A stretch of DNA of 64,000 nt from Clostridiales bacterium (lineage in GTDB: Bacteria > Bacillota > Clostridia > Caldicoprobacterales > UBA3941): assembly GCA_012735575.1 (NCBI GenBank), contig JAAYGY010000056.1, forward strand, positions 29,360 through 93,359, in the 5' to 3' direction. Each line of letters begins with the position of its first letter. Positions within the stretch are counted from its first letter, which is position 1. The translations under genes were made by a program, and so were the position numbers. Positions 7,959 through 44,032 of the stretch are shown piece after piece. The notes beneath the pieces were generated by a model, which worked only from the letters and a program-made list of their open reading frames with translations, was not told the origin of the DNA and made no database searches.

Positions 7959-7969
7959 GTTATATTTTT

Positions 7970-9073
7970 TTATAAAGTTTTTCCCTTAAGCTCAAATACA
8001 AAGGCAAGAACTTCAGCCACTGCTTGGAAAAGCTCTGGTGGGATTTCTTGTCCTATATCAGTTGAATTATATAGTGCGTGTGCTAAGGGCTTATTTTCAG
8101 TAATAATTATATCATTTTCTTGTGCAATCTCTTTTATTTTTAACGCTACATAATCTTTACCCTTGGCTACAACAACAGGGGCGTTATCTCTATCTGGATC
8201 ATACCTAAGAGCAACGGCATAATGGACGGGATTAGTAATAACAACATCTGCATGAGCAACCTCCTGCATCATCCTACGCATACCCAGTTCTCTTTGTTTG
8301 CTCCTGATACGGGAACGAATCTGAGGATCTCCCTCCATTAGCTTATATTCATCCTTTACTTCCTGCTTAGTCATCATTAAATCAAGCTCATATTGCCACC
8401 ACTGATAAGCAAAATCAAATACTGAAAACACTAATAATATGATAGCAATTTTTATTGCTATATTGTAGGCGTTATCTAAAATCATATAAACACTTTTTAT
8501 AATGTCAGCTGAGTACCAAAGATGAAGTTTTTCAAAGTTATTAATTATTTCAGTATAGACTACACTTCCAATAATAGCTAATTTTATTATAGACTTTACT
8601 AGTTCCACCAAGGAACGTTTGGAAAAAATCCTTTTAAATCCTTCTAAAGGATTTATTCTACTCAGTTTCGGAGTAATTGTTTTGGTAGTAAATAGAAATC
8701 CTACCTGGACATAGTTGGATACTAAGCCTGCTGCCATAACTATAAGCATAAAAGGTCCTATATTCGTTATCAATATCCTGCTTATGTCAATTCCTAACTT
8801 TCTAAGACCCTCGTAGGAATATACCTGATTTATGGAAATACTTCCATTAAAGAATCCTACATACGCTTCCATAATACTATTCATTATGGTAGGAAATATA
8901 ATTTTTAAGGAAGCGAAGGCGGCTAAAAGAACTATGGCAGAATTTACTTCAACACTTCTAAAAACTTGTCCTCTTTCCCTGGCATCCCGTCTTTTCTTTA
9001 AGGTAGCTTTTTCAGTCTTTTCACCTGCGAACAATTGAAGGTCTATTACTTTATTGCCATTTTGCAGAATCAT
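7970..9073 (-). CDS. flhB: FlhB flagellar export switch protein
   Basis: 367 aa; N-terminal LQLFAGEKTEKATLKKRRDARERGQV and autocleavage-type NPVH site (VITNPVHYAVAL). Confidence 0.95.
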   Translation of the reverse strand: MILQNGNKVIDLQLFAGEKTEKATLKKRRDARERGQVFRSVEVNSAIVLLAAFASLKIIFPTIMNSIMEAYVGFFNGSISINQVYSYEGLRKLGIDISRILITNIGPFMLIVMAAGLVSNYVQVGFLFTTKTITPKLSRINPLEGFKRIFSKRSLVELVKSIIKLAIIGSVVYTEIINNFEKLHLWYSADIIKSVYMILDNAYNIAIKIAIILLVFSVFDFAYQWWQYELDLMMTKQEVKDEYKLMEGDPQIRSRIRSKQRELGMRRMMQEVAHADVVITNPVHYAVALRYDPDRDNAPVVVAKGKDYVALKIKEIAQENDIIITENKPLAHALYNSTDIGQEIPPELFQAVAEVLAFVFELKGKTL

Positions 9074-26389: not shown

Positions 26390-26546
26390 AATAACAGCCC
26401 CTTAATATTCATATATATAACCTAAATAAACCCATATAAAAACATTTATCTATTATCTTCGATATAAGCAGTATTTCTCCTTCATAAACAGCAAATATTC
26501 TTTAGCAATTTGGACTAATTTGTTTTTATTTGTCGCACATAGAATA

Positions 26547-28684: not shown

Positions 28685-31333
28685 TTATTTATTCATACCC
28701 AATTGTTGTTCAAGCAAAACTTTGACCTTTTCCAGAGCCTGTGAAATCTTAGAGGGATCCTTTCCCCCTGCTTGTGCCATATCAGGCCGACCGCCGCCTC
28801 CTCCTCCAGTTTCTTTTGCTATTTCTCTTATAAGGTTACCTGAGTGAACCCCTCTGTTAACAAGATCCTTTGTTGCAGCTGCTACTAGATTTACCTTTTG
28901 CTGATTTTCTGAAGCTAATACTACCACTCCGGACTTAAGTTTGTTTCTTAGAATGTCGGCTATTTCACGTAAGCTGTTCATATCTTGGTTATCTATTTTA
29001 GCGGTGATATAATTTACATCACCTACGCTTTGCTTGCTATTGACTAGCTCTTCAATAGTACCTTGGGCTATCTGTCTTTTCAGCTGTTGAATTTCCTGTT
29101 CATATTCTTTTACCTGTTGTACTAAACCCTCAGCCTTTTGAACAAGTCCGTTGGGATTTGTTTTTAGGGTATCTGAGACATTATGCAAAAGTTCATTTAG
29201 CTCTTTTAACCATTGATGAGCACCAAATCCAGTGACTGCTTCGATTCTTCTTACCCCTGCTGCTATTCCAGTTTCACTTATAATCTTAAATAATCCTGCT
29301 TGTCCTGTATTAGACAGATGGGTTCCCCCACATAGCTCAGTGCTAAAGTCTCCCATTTTTACTACTCTGACAACATCTCCATATTTTTCACCAAATAAGG
29401 CTATAGCACCTAATTTCTTAGCCTCATCATAGGTTGTCTCTATGGTTTCTACAGGCAGTCCTTCCATAATCTTTTCATTGACTATTTCCTCAATTCTCTC
29501 TATTTCCTCGGAGGTTAAGGGTGCAAAATGAGAAAAGTCAAAACGCAGCCTAGTTGGAGTAACCAAAGAACCCGCCTGTTCTACGTGAGGTCCCAGAACA
29601 GCTTTTAGAGCCTTGTGTAATAAATGGGTGGTAGAATGATTGCGTGCAGTTGCCATTCTAGCATTCTTATCTACTTTTGCTTCAACCTCATCATTAATAC
29701 TAATTTCTCCAGAAACAACTTTGCCTTTATGAATAATATGGGATCCAAACACCTTAGATACATCTTCAATTTCTACTTTTGCTGTGTCGCTTTCTACTAC
29801 ACCCCTATCTCCAACTTGTCCTCCACTCTCAGCATAGAAAGGAGTTTGATCCAATACTAACAGTACTTGATCTCCTTCATATGCGGATTGGACCTTTTGA
29901 TTATCCTTAATTATGTTTAGAATCCGGCTTCTGGTTTCCAAAGTTTCGTATCCTTTAAACTCAGTGACATCATTCGCATTTATAAGTTTATAGGTTGGGT
30001 CATCAGCACCCATATAGTCTGTTTCCTGTCGTGCTGCCCTAGCGCGCTCACGCTGTATTTTCATTTGTTCATTAAATCCATCTTCATCAACTGATAAACC
30101 TTCTTCTTCCAATATCTCTTTAGTTAGATCTAGGGGAAAACCATAGGTATCATATAGCCTAAATGCCTTTTGACCATCTAAAACCTTGCTGCTTTCTTTC
30201 TTTAAATCATGAATATAGTCTTTAAGTATATCTAATCCCTGATCTATTGTCTCATCAAATCGTTTTTCTTCTATTTCAATTATTTTTACTATATATTCTT
30301 CTTTATCCTTTAATTCAGGATACGCCTCTTTTGACTCCCTAATTACTACCTTAGCAATCTGAGTCAAGAATATGTCTTTAATACCCAGCAGTTTTCCATG
30401 ACGTGCAGCTCTTCTTAGTATCCTTCTAAGAACATAACCTCTTCCTTCGTTTGAAGGCAAGATACCATCAGAAATCATAAACACAGTTCCCCTAATGTGA
30501 TCGGTTATGACCCGTAAGGAGATATCTGTGCTCTCCTTATCGCCGTATTCTACTCCTGAAATTTTACTAATCTCTGCCATTATATTCTTAATAGTATCTA
30601 CCTCAAACAGAGTATTTACACCCTGCATTATAGCAGCAATTCTCTCCAATCCCATACCAGTATCAATACTGGGGTGTTCCAATGGATGATAATTTCCATC
30701 TTCATCCTTATTAAATTGGGTAAATACTAAATTCCAAAATTCTACATACCTATCGCAGTCGCAACCTATAGCACAGTCTTCGTGGCCACATCCATGCTCT
30801 GGACCACGATCAAAAAATATTTCAGAGCTGGGCCCACATGGTCCTACACCAATCTCCCAAAAATTATCCTCTTTGCCCATACGTACGACTCTATCAGAAT
30901 CTAATCCAATATCCTTTGTCCATATCTCAAAAGCTTCATCATCCTCATGATATATGGTAACCCATAATCTATCTAGGGGGAGTTTTAGTACCTGGGTCAC
31001 ATATTCCCAACCCCATTCTATAGCTTCTTTCTTAAAATAGTCCCCAAAAGAGAAATTGCCTAGCATCTCAAAGAAAGTCCCATGCCTAGCTGTTTTACCC
31101 ACCCTTTCTATATCTGGGGTTCGAATACATTTTTGGCATGTGGCATCTCTTTTTCTAGGAGGGGTTTCCTGTCCTGTAAAGTATGGCTTTAATGGTGCCA
31201 TACCTGAGTTTATTAATAATAAGCTTTTATCCGACTCTGGTATTAAAGAGAAGCTTGGAAGAATCAAATGCCCTTTTCCTTCAAAAAATTTCAAGAAACT
31301 TTCTCGCAACTGATTTAGTCCCATTTTTTCCAT
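28685..31333 (-). CDS. alaS: Alanyl-tRNA synthetase
   Basis: About 882 aa; class II AlaRS core, editing-domain HxxxH (HSTTHLLH) and C-terminal DHHA1-like domain with [14 protein letters not shown]; start ATG 31333 (GGAGG 8 nt upstream). Confidence 0.95.
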
Positions 31334-31360: not shown

Positions 31361-31611
31361 AAAAATAAAACGCCCCATCAGCTGGAAGGGACGTTAATAT
31401 ACGCGGTACCACCCTTGTTACCGAACCAATTTGTTCGATCACTCGGTTTAGTCTAACGGCTCACACCGCTACAGCTTACAAATTTTCAGCTGTAGTGCTC
31501 CGGGACGGCTTCAATCAACCATATTCAAAGGGCTTTCACCATTTCCCTTCTCGCTAAAGAACTGGGCTTGATTTACTACTTCCCATCACAGCATTTTCTA
31601 TATTATTTTGT
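31361..31611 (-). promoter_or_regulatory. T-box riboswitch leader (Ala) with terminator/antiterminator
   Basis: Minus strand: Stem I GGGA-AGTAGTA...TTGATTGAAGCCG-TCCC (specifier GCC at 31509-31507), T-box sequence AACAAGGGTGGTACCGCGTA (31419-31400), terminator CGTCCCTTC-CAGCT-GATGGGGCG + TTTTATTTTT. Confidence 0.9.
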
Positions 31612-33652: not shown

Positions 33653-33698
33653 AAAAAAAAGGTCAGCTTTTGAAGAATTTCTCAATAACTAGCTGACC
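33653..33698 (-). terminator. Rho-independent terminator after mnmA
   Basis: Minus strand GGTCAGCT...AGCTGACC 8-bp stem (22-nt loop) followed by TTTTTTTT. Confidence 0.7.
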
Positions 33699-33720: not shown

Positions 33721-34818
33721 TTAATTTGAATTTAAGCTATGCTCTATTATTCCTCCGCCCAAAACATAGTCATCCTCATAAAAAACAGCAGCTTGTCCAG
33801 GAGTAATTGCTCTTTGGGGTTCATCAAAAGATACCTTTATCTTATTGTTTTCTAAAGGATATAAGGTGGCTGGAACTTCAGAAGCGGTGTAACGTATCTT
33901 TACCTTTGCTCTTATAGGTTCTATCAGGGCGGGAATGGAAATAAAGTTTAGTCGCTCCACTATCATTTCTTTAGAAAAAACCTCATGATGGTCACCTAGG
34001 ACAACTAAATTTTTTTCAGCATCTATTGATACAACATACATGGGTTTTCCCAAAGCTATTCCTAAGCCCTTTCGCTGTCCTATGGTGTAATGGATAATAC
34101 CCTTATGTTTGCCCAATATATTTCCCTGAGTATCTACAAAATTACCAGGATTTATTTGTTGACCTAGCTGTTGCTCTATAAACTTGCCATAGTCATTATC
34201 GTCTACAAAGCATATTTCCTGGCTATCAGGCTTATTAGCGACTGTCAAACCTATCTTTTTTGCTAGATCTCTAACCTCTTCCTTAGTATACTTACCTAGT
34301 GGGAACAAAGTATGCTCTAGTTGGTACTGAGTCATGGAATAGAGTGCATAAGTCTGATCCTTCCCTGTAGCTACAGATTTTTTCTAAATATAACGTTGAC
34401 TTTGATCATTGTAAGTTATATCTGCATAGTGTCCGGTAGCAATATAAAAGGCATCCAGATCTAAAGCCTTTTTTAAAAATCTATCAAATTTAATATAGCG
34501 GTTGCATGCAATACAGGGATTAGGAGTTCTGCCTTTTACATATTCATCAATAAAATAATCAATTACCTTATCCTGAAAAACTTCTTTAAAGTTCATTACA
34601 TAAAAAGGGATACCTATATGATTGGCCACCCGCCTTGCATCATCTACAGCTGAAAGAGAGCAGCACCCGCCCTCTCTTTCTCTTACATGCCCTGGTAAAT
34701 CAGGCCATATCTGCATGGTAACCCCAATTACCTCATATCCCTGTTCCTTTAGAATATAGGCAGCAACGGAACTATCCACTCCTCCGCTCATGCCTATTAG
34801 AACTCTTTGCTTATTCAT
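33721..34818 (-). pseudogene. mnmA: tRNA 2-thiouridine(34) synthase MnmA interrupted by one in-frame TAG (34384-34386)
   Basis: ORFs 34384-34818 (SGGVDSS PP-loop, [10 protein letters not shown]) and 33721-34335 (DSQEICF, C-terminal barrel) are in the same frame; read-through gives ...QRYI*KKSVATGKDQTYALYSMTQYQLEHTLFPLG with the conserved KDQ(S/T)Y motif encoded between stop and next ATG. Confidence 0.85.
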
Positions 34819-35198
34819 GCACCCACCTTGTTTTTTTGCTTTTCTATATAATCCTCAATTGCTTTTCGAATTGCCTCTTCTGCTAATACCGAACAATGCA
34901 TTTTTACTGGAGGTAGACCGTCTAAAGCATCAGCCACAGCCTTGTTGGTTATAGCCAAAGCCTCATTTATAGTCTTGCCCTTTATCAATTCTGTTGCCAT
35001 ACTGCTGGTGGCAATCGCTGCACCACATCCAAAGGTCTTGAATTTTACATCAACAATAACATCATTTTCTACTTTTAAAGAGATTCTCATTATATCTCCA
35101 CATTTTGCATTTCCAACTTCCCCTATCCCATCAGGATTCTCAATCTCGCCTACATTACGAGGATTCATAAAATGATCCATACCTTTTTCACTATACAT
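34815..35198 (-). CDS. nifU: NifU/IscU-type Fe-S cluster scaffold
   Basis: 127 aa; [21 protein letters not shown] three-Cys scaffold motifs; overlaps nifS and mnmA ends. Confidence 0.9.
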
Positions 35199-36378
35199 AC
35201 TGGCATCCTCCTTTTTCTTGGATAAACAAAGGTGACATTTCTCTTAGTCTTTGAACTATTTGTGGTAATACTTCCAAAACATAATCTATATCTTGATCGG
35301 TGTTGTCATCTCCCAATGTCATTCTTAATGATCCATGAGCAATTTCATGGGACAAACCAATAGCTAACAATACATGGGAGGGATCTAAAGAACCTGAAGT
35401 ACACGCAGATCCACTAGAAGCTGCAATACCTTTCAAATCCAAGCTTAAGAGCAGTGATTCACCCTCTATATATTCAAAACTCATATTTACATTTCCAGGT
35501 AATCTGGAAGTAGAGTGGCCATTTAATCTTACATTGTCAATTCTTTCCATAATACCGTTTATAAGCTTATTCCTCAGACGTATAAGCTTTTTATTATTCT
35601 CTTCCATATTTTCATATGCAAGCTCAATGGCTTTCCCTAAGCCTATAATACCGGGAATATTCTCAGTACCTGCACGACGATTTCGCTCTTGGGCTCCTCC
35701 ATGTAAAAGGGGAGTTATCTTTGTTCCCTTTCGTACATACAAGGCGCCTATTCCCTTGGGGCCATAAAATTTATGAGCTGATAATGACAAAAGGTCTATA
35801 TTCATATCATTTACATCTATGTCTACTTGTCCTATTGCTTGTACTGCATCAGTATGGAAGTAAACACCCTTCTCTTTAGTTATGGCACCTATTTCCTTTA
35901 TAGGCTGAATAGTACCTATTTCATTATTAGCAAACATTATGGAAACCAAGATTGTATCTGGTCTTATAGCTTTTTCAACCTGCTTAGGATCTACCATGCC
36001 ATAAGAATCTACCGGTAAATAGGTTACCTCAAAACCATTCTTTTCAAGAAACTCACAGGTGTATAGTACAGCATGGTGTTCAATGGCAGAGGTTATTATA
36101 TGTTTACCTTTATTTTGATTTGCCAGTGCAACTCCCTTTATTGCCCAGTTATCAGACTCAGTACCCCCGCCTGTAAAAAAAATCTCGTCAAACCTTGCAT
36201 TTAAGACTTTTGCTGTCTGTTCTCTGGCCTTATCTACTGCCTTACGGGCTTCCCGACCAAAGCTGTGTACACTAGAAGGATTACCGTAATTTTGTGTAAA
36301 ATAGGGTAGCATGGCTTCTAAAACTTCTTTCTTAATATAAGTAGTTGCGGCATGATCTAGATAGATGCTCCTTTTCAT
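35191..36378 (-). CDS. nifS: Cysteine desulfurase (NifS/IscS class I)
   Basis: 395 aa; PLP-Lys context [12 protein letters not shown], active-site loop [10 protein letters not shown]. Confidence 0.9.
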
Positions 36379-36411: not shown

Positions 36412-36885
36412 TTAACTATTGCATTGCACTTTTGTACTTTCTATATCTTTGTTGGAATATTTACTATCAATTAACTGTTGCTCTCGAACCATATCTTCTA
36501 GGGTTATGGAATCTATTACTTGATTTATGCTATCTCTTATTTTTTCCCATACGATTCTAGTTACACAGGCATCAGCACCGGTACATTCAATTTCTTCATC
36601 ATCTCTAACACAGTCAGCCGGTGCAATATTACCTTCCAAAGTTCTTAAAATTTGACCTATATAGATTTTATCAGGAGACTTTCCTAGCAAATAGCCACCA
36701 TGGGCTCCACGTACACTCTTAACCAGCCCTGCCTTTCTCATACTTGCAAAGAGTTGTTCCAAGTAGGCTTCTGATATATTCTGTCTGTTGGCTATTTCAT
36801 TTAGAGGAATTGGCCCCTGAGATTGATTCAATGCTAGGTCAAACATGGCTCTCAGGCCGTATCTGCCTCTGGTAGAGAGCTTCAA
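36412..36885 (-). CDS. Rrf2-family transcriptional regulator (IscR/CymR-like)
   Basis: MKLSTRGRYGLRAMFDLA... wHTH; three Cys in CVRDDEEIECTGADAC suggest an Fe-S ligand set. Start set to TTG 36885 (GGAGGTG 5 nt upstream). Confidence 0.85.
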   Translation of the reverse strand: MKLSTRGRYGLRAMFDLALNQSQGPIPLNEIANRQNISEAYLEQLFASMRKAGLVKSVRGAHGGYLLGKSPDKIYIGQILRTLEGNIAPADCVRDDEEIECTGADACVTRIVWEKIRDSINQVIDSITLEDMVREQQLIDSKYSNKDIESTKVQCNS

Positions 36886-36906
36886 AATAACACCTCCAAA
36901 ACCCAA

Positions 36907-43748: not shown

Positions 43749-44032
43749 AAAAAAACACTCACATCCCAATCATCACATGAAAGGGACGGGAGCGTTTCCC
43801 GCGGTGCCACCCTTGTTGGAGAATCCATATATAGGCTTCTCCCGCTTAAAAATTTAACGCTTTTACGCGTACACTGCTTACTTAAGTTCGGCAGGTCGGT
43901 TCTAGGGTCGTCGTTCACTAGCTTATACTAAAGAGGTGCTTTCAGCCACGACACCTCATCTCTTTTTAGCTCCACCAGCTACTCTACCCTTCTTTACCTT
44001 TACAATATTAACTAAAATATTCGTGATTTTCT
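43749..44032 (-). promoter_or_regulatory. T-box riboswitch leader of hisS-aspS operon
   Basis: Minus strand: Stem I GGGT-AGAGTA...AGTGAACGACG-ACCC, AGAGA box, T-box sequence CAACAAGGGTGGCACCGCGGG (43818-43798), terminator hairpin + TTTTTTT (43755-43749). Candidate specifier GAC at 43912-43910. Confidence 0.85.

Follow-up and report, generated by a model that had tools for sequence, protein, structure and literature searches.

A private amber codon in mnmA of an uncultured Caldicoprobacterales genome, a very recent knockout or a sequencing error

The mnmA gene of the window (the whole 64-kb stretch of DNA that was analysed) is interrupted by an amber codon, and comparison within the species shows that, as far as the available sequences reach, this TAG is a singleton allele private to one assembly and that Leu is the ancestral residue. 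On balance we favour a genuine, very young loss-of-function allele of the strain or of a sub-population. The stop is an ordinary very recent knockout or a sequencing error; it is nothing new and belongs to an already known category. The finding matters little: at most, the window would hold an mnmA-null allele that occurs naturally in an uncultured relative of Clostridium from digesters, hinting that s2U34 is dispensable there, and the TAG should not be counted as evidence for stop-codon recoding or for a split enzyme.

The interrupted gene and its operon

The features of the locus are as follows.

33721..34818, minus strand: mnmA, tRNA 2-thiouridine(34) synthase, 365 codons plus stop, cut at codon 145 (from the translation and from matches of NF001138/TIGR00420 to both pieces)
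34384..34386, minus strand: premature amber TAG, codon 145; the variant base is 34385, coding-strand A versus T in conspecifics (TTG = Leu145)
34387..34818, minus strand: N-terminal MnmA fragment, 144 aa, with PP-loop SGGVDSS and C102-x-x-C105 motif
33721..34383, minus strand: C-terminal part of MnmA, 220 codons, with the KDQTYALY motif and the second catalytic Cys (EICF, C203)
34815..35198, minus strand: nifU, Fe-S scaffold; its stop overlaps the mnmA start (ATGA), and it carries a private V6G at a residue invariant in orthologues
35191..36378, minus strand: nifS, cysteine desulfurase, terminated by a functional TAG
36412..36906, minus strand: Rrf2-family regulator, CymR/IscR-like, first gene of the operon
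33653..33698, minus strand: hairpin with an 8-bp GGUCAGCU/AGCUGACC outer stem, then a U8 run; fold z = -3.0; downstream of mnmA

The initial annotation had described a single in-frame amber codon between two open reading frames of the same frame, and this was confirmed. The minus-strand translation of 33721-34818 contains exactly one internal stop, a TAG, which leaves the frames 34384-34818 (144 aa) and 33721-34335 (204 aa counted from the next ATG). No other gene of the window is broken by an in-frame stop. Functional genes have an uninterrupted reading frame, and that of mnmA is interrupted at codon 145.

The MnmA family was represented by the NCBIfam models NF001138 (cut-off 284 bits) and TIGR00420 and by Pfam PF03054, PF20259 and PF20258. 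The first piece matched positions 1-130 of NF001138 and the second matched 137-345, with no frameshift and nothing lost; scored separately, the fragments reached 188.3 and 261.0 bits, each under the curated cut-off, and their joint coverage was 1-345. This agrees with the earlier statement that the gene has neither frameshift nor erosion and keeps KDQTYALY. The PP-loop ATP-pyrophosphatase motif (SGGxDS type) is present near the N-terminus at residues 11-17, and the catalytic residues C102-I-A-C105 and C203 align with those of PDB MnmA chains. The TAG lies between the CxxC and C203, so the stop does part the PP-loop and first Cys region from the second Cys region, as had been noted.

Solved MnmA chains (9hln, 9hlv and 2hma, 375-376 aa, and E. 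coli 2der, 2det and 2deu) aligned over the full length with E = 8e-88 to 1e-83, and like them the window MnmA keeps the PP-loop, both catalytic cysteines and the KDQ(T/S)Y motif; unlike them, the window copy ends at the Leu145 codon. At residues 99-106 (TPNPCIACN; window 34495-34515) it has Cys in place of E. coli Asp99, giving a CxxC...C arrangement in a gene directly after nifS-nifU, and 9hln and 9hlv differ from each other at precisely that Cys/Asp position. The roles of the residues equivalent to E. coli Asp99/Cys102/Cys199 have been described (PMC11784392), and the arrangement in the window would fit the Fe-S-dependent MnmA type discussed there.

The operon had been described as Rrf2-nifS-nifU-mnmA with an ATGA overlap of nifU and mnmA, and the description is right; mnmA is the last gene. 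The hairpin and U8 run, judged from the predicted fold, are probably the intrinsic terminator of the operon. Since this likely terminator comes right after mnmA, the stop would have no polar effect on other genes. A simple terminator scan found nothing 3' of mnmA, because the loop of this hairpin is long, and the structure was seen only upon folding. Like cymR-yrvO-mnmA of Bacillus subtilis, where an abbreviated s2U34 pathway uses a dedicated desulfurase and MnmA, the cluster has an Rrf2/CymR-like regulator, an IscS/NifS-type desulfurase and a co-directional mnmA, and, as at the B. subtilis locus, no Tus relay genes were found near mnmA (PMC5372745). It differs from the B. subtilis locus in having a NifU/IscU-type scaffold gene between desulfurase and mnmA, in having Cys, not Asp, first in the D/C-x-x-C motif, and in the premature stop in this assembly. 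Overall, the cluster is a normal example of the 'abbreviated' s2U34 pathway of Gram-positive bacteria (PMC5372745).

Codon 145 within the species and among orthologues

Eight contigs of the same species covered the site. They come from uncultured Caldicoprobacterales, are 99.7-99.96% identical to the window in DNA with no indels around mnmA, and were obtained from Logan, the NCBI MAGs GCA_049277335.1 and GCA_049652165.1, ENA and JGI. The Leu145 codon is TTG in all eight (L081-L087 and L104), which represent independent samples. Seven of them (L081-L087) span the gene and give gap-free alignments of 12-21 kb with the window, at 99.87-99.94% identity, and base 34385 is their sole difference from the window in the 1098 bp of mnmA. 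The change from Leu TTG to TAG, only guessed at in the initial annotation, is therefore borne out.

A protein search led to the same result. The protein P0001 (365 aa), named MnmA by NCBI and taken from a 'Caldicoprobacterales bacterium' MAG, is identical to the window translation except for Leu at 145. It was intact on 23 of 23 contigs read and is indexed in 43 blocks of the collection; its contigs come from Logan, ENA, JGI and NCBI assemblies, chiefly from anaerobic digesters. Exact-product look-up found the 144-aa MnmA fragment on record in no public assembly, and no record of the window NifU. The 204-aa product is on record through two short contigs only (L104 and L105), neither of which has the TAG. 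L105 starts at the 204-aa ATG itself. L104 is an ENA contig of 979 bp. It reads TTG at codon 145, and an in-frame TAA of its own (Tyr to stop, corresponding to window 34540) lies 19 nt from the contig end and is almost certainly a contig-tip error; this explains the recorded 204-aa 'fragment'. When the JGI metagenome collection was scanned for the site and any middle base was allowed, neither allele was matched, a result that is uninformative on TAG versus TTG.

The alignment of orthologues that had been proposed as a check was made with 80 loci from a genome scan (60-87% identity), the nearest being uncultured Clostridia, with Caldicoprobacter at 71%. The column of codon 145 holds Leu in 65, Ile in 12, Val in 2 and Met in 1, written with 11 different sense codons. 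The residue aligns with Leu145 of 9hln, on the strand preceding the KDQTY segment in the catalytic domain, and is a buried aliphatic position.

The phrase 'otherwise undecayed' used for the gene is true as a description and carries no information, because an allele one mutation away from wild type has simply had no time for decay. Ordinary nonsense pseudogenes and bacterial singleton loss-of-function alleles likewise rest on a single-base change, are absent from conspecifics and have no secondary decay or compensating features; unless the base is a sequencing error, we found no difference between them and the window mnmA. At the level of sequence, the comparisons establish that the base differs, that the difference is private to this assembly, that Leu is the ancestral state and that nothing in the gene is adapted to the split. 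The reality of the base, as against a consensus error, and its phenotypic consequence are inferred.

Private substitutions, mutation or consensus error

For a genuine allele, a coding-strand T-to-A transversion at 34385 would have turned Leu145 TTG into TAG in an otherwise wild-type mnmA, in a lineage with a few further private substitutions that seem deleterious and have not been purged. Translation would end at codon 145 and give the 144-aa fragment, which would keep the PP-loop and miss the second catalytic Cys and both tRNA-binding domains. This fragment would be inactive, and full-length MnmA would be made at most in traces, via background near-cognate read-through. Singletons in a population are enriched for deleterious and nonsense changes.

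The comparison was widened to 60 kb of the window and 31 conspecific loci. The first list of private variants had 37 entries; a second haplotype group (L106-L111) covers 21 of these and has 12 of them too, including alleles first taken as private to the window (AlaRS I59T, FlgC S31T, AKR N256H). These shared alleles indicate that the window is a genuine, distinct haplotype. Once the second group was counted and coverage by at least 3 contigs was demanded, the truly private set came to 20 substitutions. They comprise 9 synonymous and 11 non-synonymous changes (stop included), with 8 transitions and 12 transversions, and five of the 20 are T>A on the coding strand. At 105 variant sites at least one other contig also has the window allele, and the spectra there are normal: synonymous changes outnumber non-synonymous ones by 52 to 35, and transitions outnumber transversions by 74 to 31. 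The private variants are concentrated at 11.7-41 kb, and the other ~30 kb has four, all synonymous.

Several of these changes are individually suspicious. At window 35182, nifU codon 6, a private T>G changes Val6 to Gly, where Val is found in 66/66 orthologues and 7/7 conspecific contigs. Like the mnmA stop, 800 bp away, this private change lies in the operon and looks damaging. At 31146, alaS codon 65, a private V65D falls in a column with V/M/I in 19/19 orthologues. Further private changes are I127N in codon 127 of an aldo-keto reductase (27960) and D314E (20857) and R373L (20681) in fliI. NifU V6G, AlaRS V65D and AKR I127N are all at codon position 2, and the changes at 31146, 27960, 20857 and 20681 are mostly coding-strand T>A transversions. 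Such substitutions in the assembly deserve a quality-control flag.

The spectrum of the private set would suit new mutations not yet purged about as well as consensus errors. A consensus, base-call or assembly error, in which the organism really has TTG, mnmA is intact and the A at 34385 is artefactual, is a serious possibility that we hold to be the less probable one. It would account for a TAG allele that is in no other assembly, in a gene expected to be important (PMC7408541), and for the transversion skew of the private set (12/20, against 74:31 transitions to transversions in shared polymorphisms) with its five T>A on the same strand. Private changes also hit invariant or strictly hydrophobic columns in essential genes nearby (NifU V6G, AlaRS V65D, AKR I127N), and the sole private indel is in an A8 homopolymer, a typical site of consensus errors. 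In addition, the window (>64 kb) crosses the short-read break points of the species, which is compatible with a long-read assembly of higher residual error. However, 9 of the 20 private substitutions are synonymous, above the ~25% expected of random errors, and their clustering in one 30-kb stretch is unlike errors at a uniform rate. No common motif was evident around the private changes as a sign of systematic base-calling error. The homopolymer discrepancy is the only one in 60 kb of AT-rich sequence, which indicates an assembly of high quality. On the other side, B. subtilis cannot do without mnmA and the desulfurase that partners it, though mnmA is not essential in E. coli (PMC7408541, PMC10219651). 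In a related Gram-positive lineage the loss of mnmA might therefore be lethal or strongly counter-selected, which counts against a real allele.

The private indel lies at ~7965-7972, in the spacer after the flhB stop, with A7 in the window and A8 in six conspecific contigs; it is intergenic, harmless and a typical homopolymer-length discrepancy. Another length polymorphism, of 1 nt in a T run at window 49435 in the spacer between an apt-like gene and recJ, is found in L096 and L099 and not in L097, L100, L101 or the window. Short-read contigs of the species tend to break between mnmA and alaS (L087/L107, L106, L108). L106 (ENA ERZ18327520) shows 7 SNPs in 60 bp at the alaS 5' end (31043-31103) and 6 in 80 bp upstream of flgB (26424-26506), and these dense clusters suggest short recombination imports.

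Decoding of the stop, a split enzyme or a second gene copy

The initial annotation had offered four explanations. Two of them, a recent nonsense mutation and a base-call error, are supported; amber suppression or read-through and a two-piece enzyme are not. Were the TAG subject to programmed decoding, whether through pyrrolysine insertion, a suppressor tRNA for amber codons or efficient read-through, full-length MnmA would be made, and the reading frame does continue perfectly past the TAG. This is a weak point, as is the background near-cognate UAG read-through that exists in all bacteria. Against it, the TAG is not conserved, with TTG in 8/8 conspecifics and a sense codon for an aliphatic residue in 80/80 orthologues. 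TAG is also the normal terminator of ~20 ordinary minus-strand genes, including nifS, fliF, ruvA, relA and aspS, after which a ribosome-binding site and start or an intergenic spacer follows, and no other gene of the window has an in-frame TAG. The likeness to pyrrolysine-type UAG recoding (e.g. of methylamine methyltransferase genes) is only superficial, namely one in-frame TAG in an intact gene; unlike there, the mnmA TAG is not conserved, its column is an aliphatic core residue and TAG is a normal stop in the same operon. Neither pyl-like genes among the genes of the 64-kb window nor any tRNA gene in it, suppressors included (ARAGORN), was found. We consider such decoding very improbable. 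A functional two-piece MnmA, in which polypeptides of 144 aa and ~204 aa are made separately and assemble into active enzyme, has a negligible chance of being right. Both halves are intact in sequence, with one catalytic cysteine in each, but this is trivially explained by an allele only one mutation old. There is no start within the 16 codons after the TAG, the first in-frame ATG being at 34335, 17 codons downstream, and the sequence ahead of it, GCACTCTATTCC, is without a Shine-Dalgarno. A restart there would remove the family-conserved KDQTY(A/F)LY segment, which in E. coli holds Phe154, contacting U34 (PMC5372745). The break falls inside the single catalytic domain (residues 4-215 in E. 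coli; PMC5372745), parting the PP-loop and CxxC from the second catalytic Cys at no domain boundary, and split mnmA is absent in the relatives, which all have single ORFs.

A real nonsense mutation might also be tolerated if the genome had, elsewhere, a further mnmA paralogue or a different route to U34 thiolation, which would make the window copy an ordinary redundant pseudogene. This sub-case of the young nonsense allele would reconcile a real null allele with the importance of mnmA in Firmicutes, but we think it unlikely. The 64-kb window has no second mnmA, its only other match being the PP-loop of argininosuccinate synthase, and the genome scan, which was not designed to find paralogues, gave one locus per related genome. 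Still more doubtful is a real TAG that has become fixed in a viable natural strain of this Gram-positive-type anaerobe, with s2U34 and MnmA dispensable in the lineage (unlike in B. subtilis) or rescued by an acquired amber suppressor. If it were so, the private NifU V6G might mean relaxed selection on the whole nifS-nifU-mnmA thiolation module.

Beyond mnmA, TAG closes 26 of the 104 long stop-to-stop frames of the window and is neither rare nor avoided. Nine junctions join long frames in the same frame, and eight of these are normal gene ends followed by a Shine-Dalgarno and a start (fliF/fliG, ruvA/ruvB and motB/fliL among them). A reassignment of the genetic code or a general excess of in-frame TAG was also considered and rejected, as mnmA is the only split gene among the nine and TAG is a common terminator. 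The Rfam search of the window found two T-box leaders and nothing else; both are on the minus strand and over the gathering score (31384-31598, 141.8 bits; 43779-44003, 110.2 bits), and they lie 5' of alaS and 5' of the hisS-aspS pair, respectively, and are ordinary.
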